DNA from: an uncultured bacterium
Lineage (GTDB): Bacteria; Methylomirabilota; Methylomirabilia; Methylomirabilales; CSP1-5
Assembly: GCA_964558395.1 (NCBI GenBank)
Contig: CAZLDS010000013.1
Location: forward strand, 390 to 64,389
DNA length: 64,000 nt
Reading direction: 5' to 3'
Shown: piece by piece, positions 7,775 to 17,340 of the stretch
Layout of the letters: every line of letters starts with the position of its first letter
How positions within the stretch are numbered: the stretch's first letter is position 1
Notes under the pieces: generated by a model
What the model saw: the letters and a program-made list of their open reading frames with translations, nothing else
Told to the model about the DNA's origin: nothing
The model's database searches: none
Position numbers and translations under genes: made by a program

Positions 7775-8233
7775 TTATCTCCGCCAGCGTGTCAGGCGCC
7801 GGGCGGTCAGTTCTCCCCAGAGGAAGGTGAAAAGCGCGTGGCGGGCCGTCTTGCGAATCCGATCGTAGTGGCGACACGTCCCTTCCGCAAAGTGGGTACG
7901 CGTGCCGTTGGCGCGGCAGAGGAGGACCCGCCCGGAGACCGCATTGTGGCGGAGGCCCAGCGGCGCGACATTGAGGACCGTAACATCTACTGGGAGATGG
8001 AGCGCTCGGCTGAGGTCCTTCGCGAGAGTCATCTGGTATTGGTGAACGGCTCGCCGGGTCAGATGGCCATTATCCAGGTAGACCGCCACGTCGATATCCC
8101 GAAATCTCGATCCGTTGATGAAGGAACCGTGGAGATACGCGAAGAGGACCTCTTCGCGGAATGCCAGCAGGTCATGGAGGGCGGAGGTGACGTGCGCCTT
8201 TTCTCGAGAGGTCAGTCGATACCTGGCGTACAT
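7775..8233 (-). CDS. Minimal nucleotidyltransferase (MntA-like)
   Basis: FAYLHGSF...RDIDVAVYL and VDVTVLNVAPLGLR, the MNT signature. Confidence 0.8.
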   Translation of the reverse strand: MYARYRLTSREKAHVTSALHDLLAFREEVLFAYLHGSFINGSRFRDIDVAVYLDNGHLTRRAVHQYQMTLAKDLSRALHLPVDVTVLNVAPLGLRHNAVSGRVLLCRANGTRTHFAEGTCRHYDRIRKTARHALFTFLWGELTARRLTRWRR

Positions 8234-8339: not shown

Positions 8340-8714
8340 TCAAGGGGAGGAATCCTCATAGATCGTCCACGCGTCTGCCCGCTTCGCCTGAACCTCCGCC
8401 CTCAGGACCTCCTGGCCCCCGATCTTCAGCCTGACAAAATACGGGGTCTTTGCCTCGTCGCGCCCCTGTGGTGGTAGATAGTGAACCTGGATCTGCTGGT
8501 CAGGAAATTCGGTTGCCACCATGCCGGCCCAGTCGAAATCGGGGCTGTACGTCCCGGCTTCATCGAGGCCCCCGACATTGGTTTCCAACGTCATGGTGCT
8601 GGGGGGAAGACCCTGCAGCTTCTCCCTCAGCCACTCGGCCAGAGAGGAACTGATCCCGCCCTGCAGGGCTGGCATTGTGATGGCGTATTCTCCCCAGAGT
8701 TTCATCGTGATCAC
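8340..8714 (-). CDS. Hypothetical protein
   Basis: 124-aa ORF with protein-like composition; start uncertain. Confidence 0.45.
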   Translation of the reverse strand: MITMKLWGEYAITMPALQGGISSSLAEWLREKLQGLPPSTMTLETNVGGLDEAGTYSPDFDWAGMVATEFPDQQIQVHYLPPQGRDEAKTPYFVRLKIGGQEVLRAEVQAKRADAWTIYEDSSP

Positions 8715-8796: not shown

Positions 8797-9846
8797 CTAT
8801 TGTTCCACTGTTCCGGGCTCTTTCCCTGGGCTTTCCATTTGCTGGTCTCGCTCCATCGACATCCGCCGGCGGATGCGACGGAAGGTGAGCATGTCCCGTT
8901 TCAGATCCGGGTGTCCTATGCTCTTATCGAGTGAGATGACCTCTTCGAGCAGGCCGAGGGCCTTGCGATACTCTCCCTTTTCCTCGTAGATAATCGCGAG
9001 ATTATGCATGGGAACGGTCAGGCGAAGGCGGTCGTCCTGCTCCCGCAAGATCTGAATGGCGCGTTCGTACGTCTCTTGTGCGCCATCGAGGTCACCCATC
9101 TCCTTGCGGGCAAGCCCGAGGCTGTTCAGAATCGTGGCACTTCCTAAGGGATCCCCAAGCGCCTCACGCATCGCATAACTCTGCTCATAATATTCGGCCG
9201 TCTGCCGCCACTCTCCCTTGTGATGGTGCACGCGGCCCAAATTGCCGAGGGTGATGGAGAGCCCTCGGCGGTCCCCGAGCCCTTCCTGAATGGTCCGGCT
9301 CTGGCCATAGGCATTGAGGGCTTCATCCCATTTCTCCGTTTTGGCGTACAGAGTGCCGATATTATTCCACGTCAACGCGATGCCCCCTCGATCTCCTAGC
9401 TCCTCTTTGATTTTCATGCTCTCACGGTAGCACTCGAGGGCACGGTCCCAGTCCAGCTTTCCTTCGTAGACATTCCCCATCTTGCCAAGGGTGGCGGCAA
9501 CCGCGGACCGATCTGCAAGCTCCTCGTGAAGACGCCGGGCTCGGTCCAAAGACTCCAACGCCCGCTCCCACGCACCCTGTTGAGGTAAGAGGTGCCCCAT
9601 GAGGGCGGCGACAGATGCTTCCCCCGCTTTATCCCCTATTTCCTCGAAGACTGTCAGGCTTTCCTCAAAGAGGGAGAGGGCCTCTCGATACCTTCCCTGT
9701 GCCTGGTAAAAGGTCCCGATCTTCGTAAGGGCCCACCCTGTCCCCGACGCATCCCCCGCGGTCTTGCGATATTCCAGTTCTGCCATCAGCTCGGAGAGGC
9801 TGACGTGTCCCTCTGCCCCGACAGGCTGCCGATCTCCCTCGTGCAT
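8797..9846 (-). CDS. Tetratricopeptide-repeat protein
   Basis: About 7 tandem 40-aa TPR-like units (LxxIGxxYxxxGxWxxALxxYxxS). Confidence 0.88.
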   Translation of the reverse strand: MHEGDRQPVGAEGHVSLSELMAELEYRKTAGDASGTGWALTKIGTFYQAQGRYREALSLFEESLTVFEEIGDKAGEASVAALMGHLLPQQGAWERALESLDRARRLHEELADRSAVAATLGKMGNVYEGKLDWDRALECYRESMKIKEELGDRGGIALTWNNIGTLYAKTEKWDEALNAYGQSRTIQEGLGDRRGLSITLGNLGRVHHHKGEWRQTAEYYEQSYAMREALGDPLGSATILNSLGLARKEMGDLDGAQETYERAIQILREQDDRLRLTVPMHNLAIIYEEKGEYRKALGLLEEVISLDKSIGHPDLKRDMLTFRRIRRRMSMERDQQMESPGKEPGTVEQ

Positions 9847-9856
9847 GCGTCGTTCC

Positions 9857-10066
9857 TTATGCGGGTGAAGCCTGCGGCCTCTTAAAGATCATGAGGGCTC
9901 CCACTGTCCCATAGGCGACCCCGTCCCGATTGGGGGCGATCAGGGGAACCGCAGACACCATCTCCCAGCCTTCTTGACCCACGTTGTTCAGCCAGTCCAA
10001 TCCGCTCTCCAGTCCGTCAGGCGTTTCCTTAAACATCACCATGCGATCCTGATACTCCCAGTGCAT
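9857..10066 (-). CDS. DUF4177-like small protein
   Basis: WEY...LNNVGQEGWEMVSAVP...LMIFKRP; RBS ggagg. Confidence 0.75.
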   Translation of the reverse strand: MHWEYQDRMVMFKETPDGLESGLDWLNNVGQEGWEMVSAVPLIAPNRDGVAYGTVGALMIFKRPQASPA

Positions 10067-10108: not shown

Positions 10109-11470
10109 TTAGCCTGCTGCCTCAGGGTCGAGGAGGGTATCAGGCAGGCTAAACTCTGTCGCGATGCCCTTCCGCACGTCCAGCAGAAGGGTCTGTCGAT
10201 CCTCCGGACGGGCCCTCTCGACCTCGAGCATGCGCACGGTGACTTCCCGGTTGAATTCCCCCAGGCTCTCCGGGTTCGATTGCTTTTGGTATGCCCCGAT
10301 GATTGTGTCTTGCAGGGCGTGGTAGAGTGGCTCATTCACAAAGGACATTTGAGTGGTCGGATCATGGAGCATCTGATATTGATGGCTCATGAAGATCCGG
10401 CTAATATGACGAGCCATCTGGGGAGCATCCATATGTGCGTTATCTTCCAGGAGCAGGCGGAGTCGTTCCTGATCGGGCATAAGCGCCCAGACCTCTGATG
10501 AGATACTTGGGCGCGTGACCAGGCTTCCTGACCGATACCGATTCGTAAAGCTCAGGATGGTCCGCCCTCCGAGCTTTTGGGCTAAGCGCTGCACAAGCTC
10601 TTTGAGTTCTGCCTCAGGGACCTCGGAAAAGGAGGGATACCGATCCTTGAGGGGCGAGAGTGCGGGGCGCATCTCCTCGACCCTCATAAGCTCGGTCAGG
10701 GCCTTGACAGAGACCTGGAGTTCCTGGCGCGACATCCCCTCGGTATCCGCGGACGGCGTTTCTTCCGCCATCTCTTTTCCGGCAAGATTAATCCGCCTCA
10801 TGGCACCGTCAAAGAGACTTTCCAGCGGTGTGTCGAGGGAAATCGCGTGAGCGATCTCCTCCCGGACGGCCCGCAGGGTCTCTTCCGCACTCCGGGGTGA
10901 GGCCTGATCTAGTTCCTGGGTTTTGGGCAAGATCCTCCCGGTCAGAACCTCAATCTGTTCGGGAGGGAGCGCGGCGAGGGACTCCTGAATCTCAAAATAG
11001 CTGGGGAACTCGATGGCTGCCATCGGAAGGCTGGGTTCATTATAAAGATCCAGGGTGCGGCAGAACAGGAACCGCGCCAGCTCGCGGCGAAGTTGCGGTA
11101 CCGTCAGACCCGCATCCTCTGAAGCGAGCAAATGCCACTTTTCCGCGCAGGACATACTTTGCAGCTCCTCTTCTGTGAGGGAATTCAGGCCCGAGCCCTC
11201 GACCTGGGCCTTGCGCTCCAGGTCCGCCAGGGCCAGCTGGGTGTACTGGGGAACAAAGGCGGCGACGAAGGCCTGCATCCCCTCGAGGGGAAGGTGTTCG
11301 CTATAGCCTTGTAAGCAGGCGGTCCGGCTGGTCTCATCCAAACAGTCGGCAAGCACGCGGACAATCCAGCGGAGTTGGTCGTCAGGCATCGCCCCAACTT
11401 TGGAGAGGACTTCCTGCTCCCGGGTGAGAATGAATCGCCGGATCTGTTTGATCCGGGGCCCCTTATCCAT
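10109..11470 (-). CDS. Hypothetical all-helical protein with two-fold internal repeat
   Basis: 453 aa; N- and C-halves align by eye; overlaps the stop of the upstream gene. Confidence 0.75.
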   Translation of the reverse strand: MDKGPRIKQIRRFILTREQEVLSKVGAMPDDQLRWIVRVLADCLDETSRTACLQGYSEHLPLEGMQAFVAAFVPQYTQLALADLERKAQVEGSGLNSLTEEELQSMSCAEKWHLLASEDAGLTVPQLRRELARFLFCRTLDLYNEPSLPMAAIEFPSYFEIQESLAALPPEQIEVLTGRILPKTQELDQASPRSAEETLRAVREEIAHAISLDTPLESLFDGAMRRINLAGKEMAEETPSADTEGMSRQELQVSVKALTELMRVEEMRPALSPLKDRYPSFSEVPEAELKELVQRLAQKLGGRTILSFTNRYRSGSLVTRPSISSEVWALMPDQERLRLLLEDNAHMDAPQMARHISRIFMSHQYQMLHDPTTQMSFVNEPLYHALQDTIIGAYQKQSNPESLGEFNREVTVRMLEVERARPEDRQTLLLDVRKGIATEFSLPDTLLDPEAAG

Positions 11471-11828
11471 CCCGCATCTCCTGGCTCTCCAGGGCCTTCA
11501 GTAGCTCTTCGATAATCGCGTCTCGTTGATCTGCTTGGATATGCCAAAAGCCGTTCACCGGGATCTCGTCCTCGCTGTCCATCAGTTCCCCAATGTTAAC
11601 GATATGGGGACCCACCGCCGTCTGCCCCAAGAAATGTGAAAAGTAATCGACGAGGGCAAAAGACTCTCCACGCAGCGAGTGAACATCTACGGTCCCATGG
11701 TTAGGTCCGATCAAGAGAAAGAATTCCAGTTCCTCTTGGCTTCCGTCGCGGCGCGCACGCCCCTCCAGCTGGAAGCCCCCGCGTCCCGTCTCTTTCTTCA
11801 AGAGCCGAAATCGCCAACCCATGGTCAT
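11463..11828 (-). CDS. Hypothetical protein
   Basis: Start trimmed to ATG 11828 because the upstream extension is a heptamer repeat; 8-bp overlap with the 453-aa gene. Confidence 0.65.
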   Translation of the reverse strand: MTMGWRFRLLKKETGRGGFQLEGRARRDGSQEELEFFLLIGPNHGTVDVHSLRGESFALVDYFSHFLGQTAVGPHIVNIGELMDSEDEIPVNGFWHIQADQRDAIIEELLKALESQEMRDG

Positions 11829-11835
11829 TCTGACT

Positions 11836-11974: not shown

Positions 11975-12307
11975 TCAAATGCTCCAGGGGCACCACGCCC
12001 CCCAACCAAAAGCTTGGTACTCATCCTCTCCCATCCACTCCGCCAAGTGGGTGCGATGCTCTGCCAAGGATTGGAACTCCTGATTAAACTCGAGCGTCAC
12101 GATGTGCCGGTCCTCGAGGCAACAGTACCGGATCGCATATCTGTTTTCAGACAAGGGGCAGGCATCAATCGGCCGAATGTCCTCGAACATGTGGCCAAGG
12201 TTTTCCAGGATCTGGTACAGGTCATAGGACCTTCCATTAATGGTCAATTCGACGCTCCCGGTCCCGAGTTCACCGAATCGCTTCTCCACGGTTTCCCTGT
12301 CGATCAT
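11975..12307 (-). CDS. Hypothetical protein
   Basis: 110 aa, RBS gaggagtagcgggg, protein-like composition. Confidence 0.7.
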   Translation of the reverse strand: MIDRETVEKRFGELGTGSVELTINGRSYDLYQILENLGHMFEDIRPIDACPLSENRYAIRYCCLEDRHIVTLEFNQEFQSLAEHRTHLAEWMGEDEYQAFGWGAWCPWSI

Positions 12308-12457: not shown

Positions 12458-12655
12458 CTATGGGGTCTCCTTGAGCCGATCCATCAGGTCGGCAAGATCC
12501 GAGGCGCTCCGCAATGGCTTCGAATCGGTGTCCCGCAAGTCGATTAGGCGATCCATGACCTGCCGCGCGGTGCGACCCGCCGGTTTCCAGTTGATCTGAA
12601 GAGGAAAGAGAGTTCGGCCTGTGAGGCCTCCGCCCACCCGGGCGATTCCGAGCAC
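12458..12655 (-). pseudogene. Short paralogous copy of the C-terminus of the upstream E2-like protein
   Basis: LFPLQINW...VMDRL...ASDLADLMDR matches LFPLAVPW...VMDRL...ASDLANLMYR of 12858-13664; in-frame stop shortly upstream. Confidence 0.55.
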
Positions 12656-12857
12656 CTCTCCGTCGCCCGATGGAGAAAGAGGGGCCGGGGACGCCTTGGT
12701 TTGCGTCGATCTCGCCGCTCAAGTTTTCTCACCATTTAGACCGGGGAATCGGCCCTGAAAGAAACACCATTTGAATTCTATTGGGGGGGAGGGAGGATGT
12801 CAACAGCAAAGGGGCATCTGAAGTGGTGACTTGGACAGGCCTTACCTCGTATGTGAT

Positions 12858-13664
12858 TCACTTCAACTCGGGAATGCGGTACATGAGATTGGCCAGATCC
12901 GAGGCATCGCCGATGGCTCGCTGATGCTGGGGACCGGATTCGACCAGGCGATCCATGACGTCGGCGACGGTCAATTCCAGTTTCTCCCAGGGCACCGCGA
13001 GGGGGAAGAGGGGTTCGGCCTCTGAGGCTTCTTCCCAGGCCTCCAGGGTGTGGATACGGGGATCGAGCCCCCGGGCCCGTTCGAAACAGTTGCCCGCAAT
13101 GTCGGTGTTGAAGCCGGTGCCCCAAAAAAAGTCGAGCAGCATCGTTACCTGCTGGACGAGGGGCCGCTCCCAGAGATCCTCCGGCCTCCCCCTAAGACAG
13201 GCCCGACAGGCGGAGGGCTTTTCGGGATCGGCCTGCACGTTCCAGAGATTCGGCATGAGCAGAACGTCATTCGGGCTTTGCACCGGGGCTATCCGATAGT
13301 AGACGCGCATATCCTCGAGGCTGGCCTGAAAGAACAGAAAGAAATAGACGATGTAGGGAAAGGCGAGACGGTACGTCTGGTACTCTCCCCCCTTCCCCAT
13401 CTGGTCGGCGCTCCAGCGGATCAGACGCACCTGGGGAGGTTGCTCGACGCAACAGACAGTGGCGGTCCCGTCCACCTTGATGATTCGGGCTCCCGGGGGT
13501 AAGAGGAGATGATTTCCGCGACCCGGGCGACGGGTGGCTATCGTGATTTCTCGAAGGAAGTCTTGGAGAGAAACCTGTCGCTCGAGGACCGGAGGGTCTC
13601 CGCCCCGATACAAAAAGACATTCTGCCCTTCTATTTTAATCCGCTCCACCGCTCCCGCTCCCAT
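12858..13664 (-). CDS. Prokaryotic E2-like protein (Prok-E2 family D / PRTRC protein B-like)
   Basis: YRLAFPYIVYFF...VLLMPNLWNV...CRACL...FFWGTGFN resembles the recalled family pattern. Confidence 0.55.
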   Translation of the reverse strand: MGAGAVERIKIEGQNVFLYRGGDPPVLERQVSLQDFLREITIATRRPGRGNHLLLPPGARIIKVDGTATVCCVEQPPQVRLIRWSADQMGKGGEYQTYRLAFPYIVYFFLFFQASLEDMRVYYRIAPVQSPNDVLLMPNLWNVQADPEKPSACRACLRGRPEDLWERPLVQQVTMLLDFFWGTGFNTDIAGNCFERARGLDPRIHTLEAWEEASEAEPLFPLAVPWEKLELTVADVMDRLVESGPQHQRAIGDASDLANLMYRIPELK

Positions 13665-13724
13665 CCACAGCCTCGTCTAGCTTAGGGGTCTCCCATCCAC
13701 CTGTCAAGGCAGCACAACAGCAGA

Positions 13725-13832
13725 CCAAAGACGGGAGACAGGGGACCGGAGACCGAAGGTTTCAGGTCTCAGGACTGAGGACTGAGGTTTCAGGCTTCGA
13801 ATGACCTCAGCACTCAGCCCTCAACGCTCAGG
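13725..13832. repeat. Inverted pair of heptamer arrays
   Basis: ctcaggactgaggactgagg facing cctcagcactcagccctcaacgctcagg; GGAGACC units. Confidence 0.8.
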
Positions 13833-14559
13833 TCTTCTCCCTCAACCATGTCACTGCCCGTTGGAAGACTTCAGGGTTGAATTTGAGGTCTATATGGTTG
13901 AACCAGCGGTGGAGGTACGGAAGAATCGTCGGGGGAAGGGGGATGTCGGGGTGCTGGAACGTCGTCACCGGAGCCAGGGTGCCCTGGGGGAGATCTCCTG
14001 CCATGCGGCGAATCCCTTCGATCAGGGTGAGGATATCTTGCTCCCCGTGCAGGAGCAGGACCGGCCGGTCGGGTTGCGTGACTTCCTCCATCTGGCGAAG
14101 CAATTGGAGAATATAGTCCGGCTGAGGGCTCCGTACCGTCGTTGTGCCGAAGGCCAAGAGCATCTGGCGTCCCTCCTCGGAGGGACGACTCACGACAGAG
14201 GGGGAGATGGCGACGACGAGGTCGGCGGACGAGATGAGGGCCAATCGCCCACCCAGGCTATGACCCAGCGCGGCGACTTTCCCGTAGCGACGGAGCCAGG
14301 CGAGGGCAGCCTCCAGATCGTGCCGCAATCCCTCGTCGAGGGGGACGGGGTGCTCCCCGTGCCCACGAATGTCGATGGTCATGCTCGCCCATCCCTCTTC
14401 GCAAAGTCGTGCCGCGATCCCCAGCATCTGCTCTTTGTTTCCGCCATAGCCATGCACAAGCGCCACGCCGCCGCGGGGGGTTTGGGGGAGAAAGAGGTAC
14501 GCGGGGACGGCATGGTTGTCCGCCGTTCGGAGATCCGTGACTCGGAGGAATTGCATCAT
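13828..14559 (-). CDS. Alpha/beta hydrolase
   Basis: LVHGYGG, DIRGHG, nucleophile elbow GHSLGG, LLLHGEQD. Confidence 0.88.
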   Translation of the reverse strand: MMQFLRVTDLRTADNHAVPAYLFLPQTPRGGVALVHGYGGNKEQMLGIAARLCEEGWASMTIDIRGHGEHPVPLDEGLRHDLEAALAWLRRYGKVAALGHSLGGRLALISSADLVVAISPSVVSRPSEEGRQMLLAFGTTTVRSPQPDYILQLLRQMEEVTQPDRPVLLLHGEQDILTLIEGIRRMAGDLPQGTLAPVTTFQHPDIPLPPTILPYLHRWFNHIDLKFNPEVFQRAVTWLREKT

Positions 14560-14621
14560 CCCCTCCTTCGTAGTGAAAAGTTCAGGGTTGAAGATTCAGG
14601 CCGAGGCGATTTCGGATTTCG

Positions 14622-14705
14622 AAGTGCGAATTTCGAATTTTTTTTGGGCGTTGGACGTCGGACCTCGGACGTCGACGAGCTCAGTCGAGCCGTCATCCGT
14701 CATCG
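14622..14705. repeat. Heptamer tandem repeats
   Basis: TTCGAAT-type then TCGGAC-type units, same order as at 5404-5491. Confidence 0.75.
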
Positions 14706-15322
14706 GAAGAGGGCTCCGGAGGGCAGAGCTCCGGCGGAAACGGAGACAGAAATTCGACCTCGACGGGGATCTCGTGGAACTGGAGATCGCGGGTGATCAC
14801 CTGGAGCTTCTCGACGATCTCGGCGATGATAGTGCTCCGCATCGTAGCCTCGTCTGCTTCGCCATCCGGGCTGGCAAGGACCGTCAAGGCGAGATCGCCG
14901 AGCACCTGGGGGGTAGGGTGCCGGATGTCCAGGCGGCAGCCAAAATCGCCCGCTTTGTTCCCCACCAGAGACAGCATAAAATCTCCGGGGAAGCTCTCGA
15001 TGGTTCGCTCGTCTGTGGTACTCCACTCGACGTCCAGATCGGCGTGGCTATGCCACCAGAGACAGAGGGATGCGGGGTTCCGCCCCTCGGCAACGCAGCA
15101 TTGGAGGATGTCGAAAACGGCTGCCGAATCCAACTCCGTCTCTGCCGGAGAAACTTTCTGGGGAAGGATGAAGAGGTCCGTGATCACTAAGTTCGGGCCG
15201 TCACGCTGCACCTCGCCAAGTCCGCCGATCTCCATGGCGCACAGTTCGATGTACAAGCGCAACTTTTGGAAGGCCCGCGAGGTAATCAGCACCTGTGGGG
15301 GGGTGTTGTTGGTCCAGTTCAC
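14693..15322 (-). CDS. JAB/JAMM (MPN+) metalloprotease
   Basis: EIGG...WWHSH-x7-S-x2-D, an intact JAMM motif; GTG start overlaps upstream TGA (GTGA) with RBS ggaggag. Confidence 0.85.
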   Translation of the reverse strand: MNWTNNTPPQVLITSRAFQKLRLYIELCAMEIGGLGEVQRDGPNLVITDLFILPQKVSPAETELDSAAVFDILQCCVAEGRNPASLCLWWHSHADLDVEWSTTDERTIESFPGDFMLSLVGNKAGDFGCRLDIRHPTPQVLGDLALTVLASPDGEADEATMRSTIIAEIVEKLQVITRDLQFHEIPVEVEFLSPFPPELCPPEPSSDDG

Positions 15323-16458
15323 GCCGGCAGCTCCTCCCAGTGGTGGATCGGGGTGTACCACTCTTTCGGGTTCACGGTCTTCAGGTACTCGAGCAGCAAT
15401 TCAGCGGTGGCGACCCACTGAAATTCACTGATCAGTTTCAAGACACTCTGGCCGATATTCCCGAGGCACGGCTTCGCATTCCAGACGTGTGGGTGATCGT
15501 AGTAGCCGTACGCCCGGGTCAGATTCTTGATGGCCACATCGCCATTAAAACGGATGTCAACGCGGAAGCGTCCCAAGCGGTATCGCTTGCCAGCAACCAC
15601 GGTGTCGACGGTGTCCGTGAACACGCACAGGCGATCTTCCAGGATCTCGACATCGCGCACGTCCGGAATGCCGAGCAATCCCTCAAATTCCCGTACGAGC
15701 GCCTCCTCCGAGTGTTCGGCGTTCGTGAGCGTGCGGAAGCGCTTCTGGCAATTGCGGAGGAGACGTGTTTGGAGCGCCATCTGCCGGGAGAGTTCTTTGA
15801 GATTCTCTTCCACGCCCGCCATCTGCTTCTGGAGGACAGCCCCTGGCTCGCATGTCCCGGCCTCTCCACATTGCGTGTCGTTCGTCGTCTCGCCCTCCCC
15901 CGGCGCGGCCAATTGATCGAGGGTGACGAGGGTCGTTTTATGACTCAGGCGGTGAAGGGTGACCTCAACCTGATGTGGAAGGCGCCCGGTCGCCAGAGAA
16001 AGCCACTCGGTCATCCCCCCGAGGCAGAGGTCAAGGGTCCGACGCAGGATGATCGACGCCAACGCCTCGGGTTGCCCGAGCAGATCGAAGAGGACATAGA
16101 CATTTTCCCCCAGTATCCCGCCAATGGTATGTCCCTTCTGGTCCTGCTTCAGGACGCCTCGGACAAAGAGATTCCCGGGAGCCAAGGCTTTTTTTGTATC
16201 TGCGGCCAGTGGCCAGGAAAAGACCGCCGGAATCTCCATCGTGGAAGTGACCGGCCAGAGGTTCAACCAGCGAGGACGGAGCGGCAGCGCAAAGAGGTGC
16301 AGATGGAGACCATCGCCCCCCCGGGGGGGCGAGAAGCGGCTCGTCGGAGCGTGGACGTGCAGACGGATGCCCAGGGCCTTGGCGTACTCCTCCACGACTA
16401 GCCGGAGCGGTCCCGATACCTGGACCTGTTCCGTTCCGCTTGGTTGCACATCGGCCAT
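15319..16458 (-). CDS. Coiled-coil protein with C-terminal E2 (UBC)-like domain
   Basis: Central heptad segment LQKQMAGVEENLKELSRQMAL; C-terminal GRFRVDI...HPHVWNAKPCLGN; start ATG 16458 after gagagga. Confidence 0.7.
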   Translation of the reverse strand: MADVQPSGTEQVQVSGPLRLVVEEYAKALGIRLHVHAPTSRFSPPRGGDGLHLHLFALPLRPRWLNLWPVTSTMEIPAVFSWPLAADTKKALAPGNLFVRGVLKQDQKGHTIGGILGENVYVLFDLLGQPEALASIILRRTLDLCLGGMTEWLSLATGRLPHQVEVTLHRLSHKTTLVTLDQLAAPGEGETTNDTQCGEAGTCEPGAVLQKQMAGVEENLKELSRQMALQTRLLRNCQKRFRTLTNAEHSEEALVREFEGLLGIPDVRDVEILEDRLCVFTDTVDTVVAGKRYRLGRFRVDIRFNGDVAIKNLTRAYGYYDHPHVWNAKPCLGNIGQSVLKLISEFQWVATAELLLEYLKTVNPKEWYTPIHHWEELPA

Positions 16459-16517: not shown

Positions 16518-16955
16518 TCAATCGGTGCTTGCCGCTGCGTTCAGCGGCCGGACGTGTCGGGGCCAGCGCTGTATCTGGACCCGGCGGCCATCCAGAAGAC
16601 GCAGCAGTCGGCGGCCACCGGGGCTAATCCACCGCACCCGGCTCAGGTCCAGGACGAGATATGTCTCGGGATCAACGAGGTATTGCTGGCAGATCTGCGC
16701 GAGTCGGCGCGTCCAGGGAAAGACAATCCAGCCCTCGATTCGTAGCCATACCCGTCCGGGTTCCGTCGCCCACACGCGGATCACCAAAACCTGATCCAGC
16801 GAGGCGCTCGCCGCCTCGGCCGTCCGGTGAGGCTCAGCCTCCCAGATGATCAGCCGGAAGTCGTCATCCGAGCAGCGGTCGAGCCACGCCGTCCCACGGG
16901 TCATGCCGTAGGCGTACAGAATGAGAAGCGCAATGCCTACCAGTGCGATCCACAT
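16518..16955 (-). CDS. Membrane-anchored STAS-like (anti-sigma antagonist) protein
   Basis: N-terminal TM helix; LVLDLSRVRWISPGGRRLL resembles STAS; start trimmed to ATG 16955. Confidence 0.55.
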   Translation of the reverse strand: MWIALVGIALLILYAYGMTRGTAWLDRCSDDDFRLIIWEAEPHRTAEAASASLDQVLVIRVWATEPGRVWLRIEGWIVFPWTRRLAQICQQYLVDPETYLVLDLSRVRWISPGGRRLLRLLDGRRVQIQRWPRHVRPLNAAASTD

Positions 16956-17340
16956 CGGGAATCCAAGCGGCTGTCCACGATCAGCTATCAGCAACCAGCT
17001 ACATGAGACCGGGCACGGCAGACCGGAAGCCTTCGGCTCAAAACTCAGGTCTCCAGTCTCCAGCCTCGTTGCTGGCAGACGCCCGCTGATTGCACACCAC
17101 TGCTGGCCGGCATTCGACTAGCCTCGGAGACAGATTGCCTCAAGAGGGAGAGCCACCCCATGGACGAGGATCATCCCGTTCCCTGCGAGTGCCCCTGCAC
17201 CCAGCACGAGGAGAAGCCTAATTCCCATCCGTTCGTTCAGTGGAGAGACCGCTCCCGGGATCTGTTCAGAGAACCCCGTGTTGAGTCCTCTTGTGATGTG
17301 CATGCCTGTGGCCATTCCGGACACTTCCGACGCTGCCACC

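Follow-up and report, generated by a model that had tools for sequence, protein, structure and literature searches.

Gene content of the locus

We analysed a 64,000-nucleotide stretch of DNA (hereafter the window; contig C13) from a 3.27-Mb metagenome-assembled genome (MAG) of the Methylomirabilales (NC10), which carries a candidate ubiquitin-like (Ubl) conjugation locus. At its centre, a coiled-coil protein with a putative ubiquitin-conjugating (UBC)-like E2 domain (E2cc) is encoded next to a JAMM/JAB metalloprotease (JAB), followed by an alpha/beta-fold hydrolase (ABH), the protein p268 and a run of further genes. The locus is a composite conserved in one Methylomirabilales genus (g1), and the stretch was found in DNA metagenomes only. 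All genes of interest lie on the minus strand, with the transcription order g158, E2cc, JAB, ABH, p268:

16518..16994, minus strand: g158, small protein, membrane helix at the N-terminus, putative STAS-like C-terminal half
15319..16458, minus strand: E2cc, 379 amino acids (aa), with an N-terminal domain, a coiled coil and a predicted UBC-like E2 domain
14693..15322, minus strand: JAB, JAMM/JAB metalloprotease, 209 aa from a GTG start
13828..14559, minus strand: ABH, alpha/beta-fold serine hydrolase with a GHSLGG nucleophile elbow, first gene of what appears to be an older module
12858..13664, minus strand: p268, 268 aa, with invariant N139, N142 and C156 (NLWNV...C-L-x-G-R-P)

A preliminary description of this DNA, made from its letters alone, had E2cc coupled by a GTGA overlap to an intact JAMM protease, and both points held. 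The JAB GTG start at 15322 shares GTGA with the E2cc stop (GCG TGA / GTG AAC), and the E..HSH-x7-S-x2-D motif is present and conserved in 18 homologs. The zinc-site motifs EIGGLG, WWHSH(A) and WSxTD (in the window EIGGLG, WWHSHADLDVEWSTTD) were conserved in 18/18 aligned homologs. Matches to known proteins were weak but specific: a search of the PDB returned Rpn11/CSN5 (E = 0.04), and the PADLOC JAB model (E = 0.02) was the sole match in scans with Pfam, NCBIfam and PADLOC. This JAB family (JAB-A) was found in 26 of 31 genomes, in single copy in 25 of those, and was placed inside a full operon, beside a second E2cc, near ABH-p268 (genus g5) or alone (genus g3). The window copy is the only member in its genome.

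The same three scans returned nothing above threshold for E2cc, p268, g158 or the downstream proteins p110, p134, p453, p69 and p124. For g158, the true start is probably M14, giving 145 aa as in its orthologs. The STAS-like character of its C-terminal half, read off the sequence pattern, found no hidden Markov model (HMM) match in the Pfam and NCBIfam scans. Orthologs with 70-72% identity lie upstream of E2cc in four other loci (L001, L011, L012, L065), and the position directly upstream of E2cc is conserved in loci of the window's arrangement (hereafter type A).

Evidence for a UBC-like E2 domain in E2cc

The protein first put at about 380 aa, with a coiled coil and an E2-like end, is 379 aa long and ends ...YDHPHVWNAKPCLGN..., with homologs placing its start at MADVQ. 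That its C-terminal domain is a UBC-like E2 domain is supported by an invariant motif, the topology of a structure model, profile alignments, one member of the wider family and the operon context. Across 40 full-length homologs (alignment A1), residues D321, H322, P323, H324, P330, C331, L332, G333 and N334 were invariant; the motif is D-H-P-H-x6-C-L-G-N, with C331 as its cysteine. We built a profile of the last ~125 residues from 26 sequences of the loci (A3), in which D66, H67, P68, H69, C76 and G78 were invariant and P75, L77 and N79 were conserved in at least 90% of the 26.

An AlphaFold2 model of E2cc (mean pLDDT confidence, 79.5) comprised an N-terminal alpha/beta domain (residues ~12-185), a helical hairpin or coiled coil (~205-262) and a C-terminal domain (~262-379), the last running in the order helix, six-strand meander, HPH..C loop, two helices. 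The N-terminal domain and coiled coil presumably act in targeting or oligomerisation. Using hhalign, we aligned A3 with UBE2D2, UBE2N and UBE2L3 (sequences entered by hand) and found the two colinear (E = 5.5 × 10−4 local, 6 × 10−5 global), with a score of 28.0 above the maximum of 25.8 from 200 column shuffles. In this alignment HPH fell on HPN and C331 on the catalytic cysteine (UBE2D2 C85), while G-x-F-R-x-D-I-x-F fell on GGVFFLTIHFP and NPxDW on NPDDP. One E2 family member, P0248, matched Pfam UQ_con (PF00179; E = 2.9 × 10−5, 24.1 bits against a cut-off of 27) over positions 19-117 of the 140-position profile. This match was absent in the window's E2cc and its 40 close homologs, and a Pfam scan of ten more unusual members of the wide family returned no hit of any kind.

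Other searches returned no E2. The Prok-E2 models PF14457, PF14459, PF14460, PF14461 and PF14462 had no match at E ≤ 5 among 40 E2cc homologs; phmmer and profile searches against PDB sequences gave no E2 match for E2cc, p268 or A3; and Foldseek of E2cc against BFVD returned only uncharacterised phage proteins with poor TM-scores. When the E2cc N-terminal domain was compared by hhalign with UBC, the E2cc C-terminal domain, PRTRC_B and p268, nothing was found.

Candidate E1 and Ubl genes on other contigs

We found no ThiF (E1) or Ubl gene in the locus or elsewhere on contig C13, and the locus lacks both in all 8 genomes that carry it. The earlier statement that no E1 or Ubl is in sight thus stands for the locus; for the genome it does not, since two dedicated E1 and Ubl pairs lie beside paralogs of the window genes. 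A genome-wide search for ThiF gave four matches, all on other contigs, of which two are these dedicated E1s.

The first pair is on contig C86 (the type-B locus), where a DUF2203 gene is followed by an E2cc paralog (35% identity), an overlapping ThiF and a 77-aa ThiS-like protein (Ubl77) ending ...VVPKIRGG, with no JAB. Among Ubls of the E2cc family the motif ...PK(I/V)(R/K/E)GG is conserved, and the protein ends exactly at Gly-Gly (GG) in 12 of 24. The DUF2203 gene (C86:2300-2716) is conserved directly upstream of type-B E2cc-ThiF-Ubl genes (loci L028-L048) and may be a fifth component of that system.

The second pair is on contig C20, where a CDC48-like AAA ATPase precedes a p268 paralog (p259, 43% identity), a JAB that matches PRTRC_A (E = 1.7 × 10−8), a ThiF that matches PRTRC_ThiF (E = 1.8 × 10−11) and a 94-aa small protein (Ubl94). 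This stretch (C20:5568-9881; loci L007 and L004) has the look of a chromosomal PRTRC-like operon with no ParB, a 581-aa AAA gene in front and a PilZ-like open reading frame (ORF) after it. The combination of an AAA unfoldase with a Ubl system is reminiscent, by analogy, of Ubl-directed unfolding or degradation. In a Chloroflexi MAG (L056, 5684-8606), an AAA gene whose product is 50% identical to that of C20 lies directly upstream of a short E2cc-family gene, which ties the AAA to the E2cc type outside the NC10 phylum. The window-type, C86-type and C20-type loci all recur in another MAG (L001, L002 and L004).

Distribution and architectures of the E2cc family

The E2cc family was present in 30 of 151 genomes of the phylum and absent from the complete Methylomirabilis-like genome G008. 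We sorted 48 E2cc loci from species genomes into four architectures. The first is a full operon E2cc-JAB-ThiF-Ubl, seen in L019, L021, L023, L054 (Nitrospinota) and L057 (Bacteroidota, in the order Ubl-E2-JAB-E1); further full operons are L080 and L082, and complete relatives of E2cc-JAB occur in NC10, Nitrospinota, Bacteroidota and many metagenomes. The second, type B, is DUF2203-E2cc-ThiF-Ubl without JAB, with ThiF within ~100 bp downstream of E2cc in nearly all cases. The third, type A, is the window arrangement and was found in genus g1 only; every type-A locus with sufficient contig retains the order E2cc-JAB-ABH-p268. The fourth comprises two-gene E2cc-JAB cassettes among housekeeping genes in genus g6 (L043, L049, L052); in the g6 genomes, too, an E2cc-JAB locus is accompanied by an E2cc-ThiF-Ubl one. 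Operons of the form E2-JAB-ThiF-small protein also house distant E2 family members (205 and 738 aa), and the A3 profile search found at least 3,754 clusters at 50% identity (E ≤ 0.001), 1,674 of them at E ≤ 1 × 10−10. In a maximum-likelihood tree, type A formed one clade (support 97/96), the g6 cassettes another (100/100), and type B mixed with the full operons in a third.

These distributions bear on a proposal of the preliminary description, that E2 folds may be used here without an E1. In that case E2cc and p268 would serve as scaffolds or in other chemistry, and JAB would cleave a non-Ubl substrate. The missing E1 and Ubl (8/8 genomes, none with a ThiF on the same contig) and the g6 cassettes among housekeeping genes favour this view. 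Against it, 7 of the 8 type-A genomes also carry the complementary, JAB-less type-B locus, the exception being only 85% complete, and the HPH..C and JAMM residues are invariant across type A, type B, full-operon and JAB-only types, which argues for the same chemistry in all. We consider E1-independent action quite improbable, and it is not needed as an explanation.

Two further observations were made on members of this family. The E2cc homolog on the Bacteroidota chromosome (L057, 7608-8801) carries a Cys-rich tail after its UBC-like domain (…CIECGGEDGRCPYYDEAFEVC…CTGCDYLC…), possibly an extension that binds zinc. One contig (L013) is assigned in the public record to a 'Desulfuromonadales' MAG, yet its E2cc is identical to the one in a Methylomirabilis MAG of the same project (L014), which probably reflects a binning error.

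Relation of p268 to PRTRC-type E2 proteins

The protein after the hydrolase had been described as resembling Prok-E2 family D, a likeness that HMMER did not detect and that was borderline in profile-profile comparison. PRTRC systems (operon type 6d; Iyer, Burroughs and Aravind 2006) combine Prok-E2_D, the JAB PRTRC_A, PRTRC ThiF and the Ubl PRTRC_C. In our alignment of p268 homologs (A2), C156 was invariant, and the paralog on C20 adjoins JAB and ThiF. The C20-type gene order p268-JAB-ThiF is that of PRTRC B-A-ThiF with matching sizes (242-275 aa; range of the PRTRC_B proteins, 230-275 aa), and in ~20 genomes a p268 paralog occupies the PRTRC_B position between AAA and PRTRC_A-like JAB, ThiF and Ubl genes. 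Because its paralog holds the E2 position of the PRTRC-like C20 operon, p268 is possibly a very divergent E2-like protein. We compared A2 by hhalign with a nine-sequence PRTRC_B alignment (A5) and found them colinear over 171 columns (E = 0.07), with PPQVR, LAFPY, NLWNV and the invariant Cys falling on corresponding PRTRC_B motifs. An A2 profile search of a set of 5.8 billion proteins returned close family members only, with no bridge to PF14460; true PRTRC_B proteins match that model at 7 × 10−26 and 6.5 × 10−60.

The C-type paralogs, as those of the C20 kind are called (e.g. C20:7338-8117), mostly end in Gly (…YRVPGG, …YRVREG, …YRLPEG), and type-A p268 copies have extra residues after the conserved YR.

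The hydrolase-headed module

Downstream of p268, a 65-aa ORF and the genes p110, p134, p453, p69, TPR and p124 follow in this order, reaching position 8340:

12775..12803, minus strand: predicted sigma-70-like promoter, TTGACA-17-TAGAAT (consensus scan 11/12)
12458..12655, minus strand: p268b remnant, a 65-aa ORF, the 3' end left of a tandem paralog
11975..12307, minus strand: p110, small conserved protein, tail rich in Cys and Trp, C-terminus without Gly-Gly
11463..11831, minus strand: p134/p122, conserved and small; its stop and the p453 start overlap by 8 nt
10109..11470, minus strand: p453, acidic, helical-looking by sequence, no known family
9857..10066, minus strand: p69, conserved 69-aa protein ending ...QASPA
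8797..9846, minus strand: TPR-repeat protein, 349 aa, with NCBIfam TPR-type matches; last large gene of the module
8340..8714, minus strand: p124, small conserved protein that follows TPR in genus g1 and in L061

ABH had correctly been called an alpha/beta hydrolase: besides its GHSLGG elbow, it matched PF12146 (Hydrolase_4, 46.9 bits), PF00561 (Abhydrolase_1, 44.9) and PF12697 (Abhydrolase_6, 39.9), all above cut-offs. It is not an insertion, as first proposed, since ABH-p268 is a conserved pair that also occurs in genera without an adjoining E2cc. In genera g1, g3 and g5, a p268-family gene invariably comes right after ABH, and the module ABH-p268-p110-p453-p69-TPR is conserved in g3 and g5 (L058-L061), with the position of the TPR gene conserved in L001, L058, L060, L061 and L062. 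Among g1, g3 and g5, p110 orthologs share 50-81% and p453 orthologs 41-71% identity; p69 is conserved at 72-86%. The sole family match of p110 was a sub-threshold one to DUF7447, and p124 had no family match in the profile scan. Past p124, at window 7775-8233 on the minus strand, lies a Polbeta-type minimal nucleotidyltransferase (PF18765 in the ortholog) that closes the conserved cluster in several g1 genomes (L001, L011, L014, L015, L062) and may be a toxin-antitoxin-like or regulatory add-on.

These genes raise the alternative that the locus is self-sufficient, with an E1, a Ubl or both unrecognised among p453, p110, p134, p69 and g158, five conserved genes without an assigned fold. None of the five matches ThiF, ThiS, ubiquitin or any Rossmann model, no small protein of the cluster ends in Gly-Gly, and the ThiF matches of the genome are all on other contigs. 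As a hidden E1, p453 was rejected because it has no GxGxxG nucleotide-binding motif and no ThiF match; it looks helical and acidic by sequence and matched nothing in Pfam, NCBIfam or PADLOC. The end of p69 (...QASPA) means that it is not a GG-ended Ubl. A self-sufficient locus therefore seems highly unlikely to us.

Most g1 genomes have two further genes behind p268, namely p111 and the tandem paralog p268b; both are intact in L001, L015/L063, L016/L062, L018 and L064. The 65-aa ORF does resemble the C-terminus of p268 (42% identity over 48 aa), as the preliminary description had it, and it is rather the remnant of p268b after a deletion than a short copy. By blastn against L001 and L063, window 12459-12636 corresponds to the last ~180 nt of p268b with ~1 kb upstream missing, indicating that p111 and some 215 codons at the start of p268b were lost in a deletion of ~1 kb. 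The junction is spanned by a contig from an independent metagenome (X4). The deletion has fused the near-consensus promoter (window 12803-12775) to the p268b remnant and p110; its intergenic block is 83% identical to the p268-p111 spacer of L001 and L063, and it precedes p111 in relatives. This candidate promoter could drive p110-p453-TPR separately from E2cc-JAB-ABH-p268.

To describe selection, we calculated the ratio of nonsynonymous to synonymous substitution rates (dN/dS) against L001. The ratio was 0.12-0.23 for all ten genes (0.16 for g158 and for JAB, 0.12 for p110 and for p69, 0.14 for p134 and 0.23 for p453), with dS of ~0.6-1.3, and the locus is therefore maintained under purifying selection and not decaying. 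The possibility that it is the decaying remnant of a complete operon, which would fit the missing E1 and Ubl and the loss of p268b and p111 in this species, is extremely improbable given these ratios: reading frames are intact, catalytic residues are invariant, and the architecture is kept in 8 genomes of the genus, in a well-supported type-A clade (97/96). Horizontal acquisition as a defence island is not supported either; GC content stays even throughout the window, housekeeping genes flank the locus, and no marks of a mobile element or defence island were seen at the window locus. The role in phage defence suggested earlier received no direct support in this analysis.

A composite system that may be served in trans

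From gene content, conservation, motifs, paralogy, operon contexts and co-occurrence, we infer the trans-charging, target choice, JAB role and E2 nature of p268 that make up our favoured reading. In this reading, to which we assign a probability of about 0.5, the locus joins an E2cc-JAB pair to the ABH module, and both of its E2-like proteins would be served in trans by distant E1 and Ubl proteins. The first part, g158-E2cc-JAB, would be a translationally coupled pair of an E2 and a JAMM isopeptidase, belonging to a widespread four-gene type made of an E2(HPH..C), a JAB, a small ThiF-type E1 (~215 aa) and a ThiS-like Ubl ending in GG. The genus holds this type as two complementary halves, the E2 and JAB of the window and the paralogous E2, E1 and Ubl77 (...KIRGG) of C86. 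The C86 E1 would adenylate Ubl77 and hand it to either E2 paralog, the two E2s conferring different target choice, and the window JAB would remove the Ubl from targets or, in lineages whose Ubl continues past GG, trim precursors. The second part, ABH-p268-(p111-p268b)-p110-p134-p453-p69-TPR, would be an older module joined to the first in this genus, with p268 as a second E2-like protein charged in trans by the C20 E1 and Ubl.

That the parts act together in trans is argued chiefly from the complementarity of E2cc-JAB and E2cc-ThiF-Ubl. Of the two explanations in the preliminary description, borrowing of E1 and Ubl in trans is the one we favour, since the genome holds an E2cc-ThiF-Ubl(GG) and an AAA-p268-JAB-ThiF-Ubl locus and JAB is single-copy. 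The 'distinct minimal architecture' proposed with it gives way to a composite of a split-off E2cc-JAB pair and a separate, older hydrolase-headed module.

Several points weigh against this reading. Charging of the window's E2-like proteins by the C86 and C20 E1s is inferred indirectly, and at only 35% identity the two E2cc paralogs (A and B) might not be recognised by the same E1. A whole-model Foldseek search of E2cc against the PDB returned E2s only non-significantly (E = 0.5-1.7), with UbcH7, the Bil E2 (8tz0) and Ube2T among the top seven matches. The hhalign score of p268 with PRTRC_B reached only the 95th percentile of shuffles, and the p268 model had no fold match in the PDB by Foldseek. 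Among 39 p268 homologs there was no Prok-E2 Pfam match, PF14460 included, at E ≤ 5, and TIGR03737 was also unmatched. No invariant His follows the p268 Cys; PRTRC_B has an invariant H187, and the E2s of operon type 6d have a conserved Cys and an absolutely conserved downstream His (PMC1779556). G043, a 99% complete genome, has no C-type p268 at E ≤ 1 × 10−5. Finally, gaps of 133 bp (JAB-ABH) and 163 bp (ABH-p268) mean that the two parts may be neighbours without a shared function, and the g3 module (L058, L060) has neither E2cc nor JAB beside it.

The last points also speak for a doubtful though possible alternative, in which E2cc-JAB alone belongs to a Ubl pathway, with the C86 E1 and Ubl in trans, while the ABH module is an unrelated neighbour and p268 is not an E2. 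The lack of any E2 HMM or PDB fold match, the borderline profile match and the missing downstream His of p268 fit it equally. Set against it are the p268 paralog exactly at the PRTRC_B position in ~20 genomes, the A-type JAB a few kb upstream of ABH-p268 in g5 (L059, L061) and the gene order kept in every sufficiently long type-A locus.

The composite reading can also be extended, tentatively, to a network in which one small E1~Ubl(GG) serves two diverged E2s (encoded next to the E1 and next to the sole JAB, respectively), a PRTRC-like E1~Ubl serves p268 and p268b, and the two pathways meet at the window cluster. The hydrolase, p110, p453, p69 and the TPR protein would then be shared clients or effectors.

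Comparison with known systems

Bacterial ubiquitination-like pathways are an active field, including type II CBASS Cap2/Cap3, Bil and Bub, and to our knowledge all those characterised are compact operons.

BilABCD systems of Types I and II (Chambers et al. 2024; Hor et al. 2024) are described in 10.1101/2023.09.26.559546. Like Bil, the E2cc type has four separate genes for Ubl, E2, JAB/JAMM peptidase and E1 and no E3; the order Ubl-E2-JAB-E1 of L057 is that of bilA-B-C-D, the E2 has a catalytic Cys, and the Ubl has a conserved Gly, sometimes with a few extra residues. BilD exceeds 500 aa and has IAD, AAD and CYS domains; the E1s found next to E2cc measure 215-239 aa, with PF00899 as their only match. 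E2cc keeps an HPN-like HPH and C-terminal helices and adds an N-terminal domain and coiled coil, whereas BilB lacks the C-terminal helices and has a C...H (CEHH) signature. The Ubl here is 77 aa long and ThiS/MoaD-like, E2cc matches none of the Pfam Prok-E2 models, and no CapH/CapP or other defence-type regulator was seen nearby. The window locus also lacks E1 and Ubl; L019, L054 and L057 have all four genes. Bub differs in using Ser/Tyr oxyesters and fused proteins (PMC11601596), while the proteins here are Cys-bearing and unfused.

PRTRC is the closest known relative of the C20 locus alone, by gene order (p268-JAB-ThiF) and by the matches of JAB and ThiF to PRTRC models. p268 itself has the size of PRTRC_B and a weak colinear profile alignment that matches up the conserved Asn and Cys; it differs in having no PF14460 or TIGR03737 match and no downstream His. 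At C20 no ParB was seen and a CDC48-like AAA ATPase lies upstream instead, and the NC10 loci are chromosomal, not on plasmids or integrative and conjugative elements. In the window, p268 sits with the hydrolase, TPR and unknown proteins, not with a PRTRC-type JAB, E1 and Ubl, a neighbourhood that is present for the C20 paralog and L004.

The predicted E2cc domain resembles canonical UBC proteins (UQ_con, e.g. UBE2D2) in how its secondary-structure elements are ordered, in an HP(N/H) that precedes the catalytic Cys by 7-8 residues, and in an aligned G-x-F strand and N-P-x-D/W helix start. It differs in HPH in place of HPN, a ~260-aa N-terminal extension, a ThiF-size partner E1 and the lack of an E3. 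By its motifs (HPH..C, C-terminal helices), E2cc appears closer to eukaryotic UBCs than BilB or BubB is. Archaeal SAMP and bacterial TtuB systems similarly combine a small ThiS/MoaD-like GG Ubl, a ThiF-size E1 and a JAMM protease; they have no E2, whereas a dedicated E2 is always present here.

We searched the literature for the operon type, for DUF2203 with Ubl and for NC10 ubiquitin-like systems and found no description of E2(HPH..C)-JAB-ThiF-Ubl or of split forms, though absence from these searches is no proof. Our results point to an unnamed, widespread bacterial ubiquitin-like system able to work in separate pieces. Its E2 family is very large, has no Pfam, NCBIfam or PADLOC model above threshold, and works alongside an E1 of the smallest kind and a ThiS-like GG Ubl in its operons; if the assignment is correct, E2(HPH..C)-JAB-ThiF-Ubl, with its at least 3,754 clusters, would be a major unnamed family of bacterial ubiquitination-like systems. 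The natural split, with E2 and JAB far from E2, E1 and Ubl, points to components that act in trans and to an E1 that serves more than one E2, and the network described above, if real, would represent an early prokaryotic diversification of E2s per E1. The biological role could be in proteostasis, regulation or defence. Since the Ubl ends in ...KIRGG, trypsin would leave a K-GG remnant identical to that of ubiquitin, which makes conjugation testable in proteomes of NC10 enrichment cultures.

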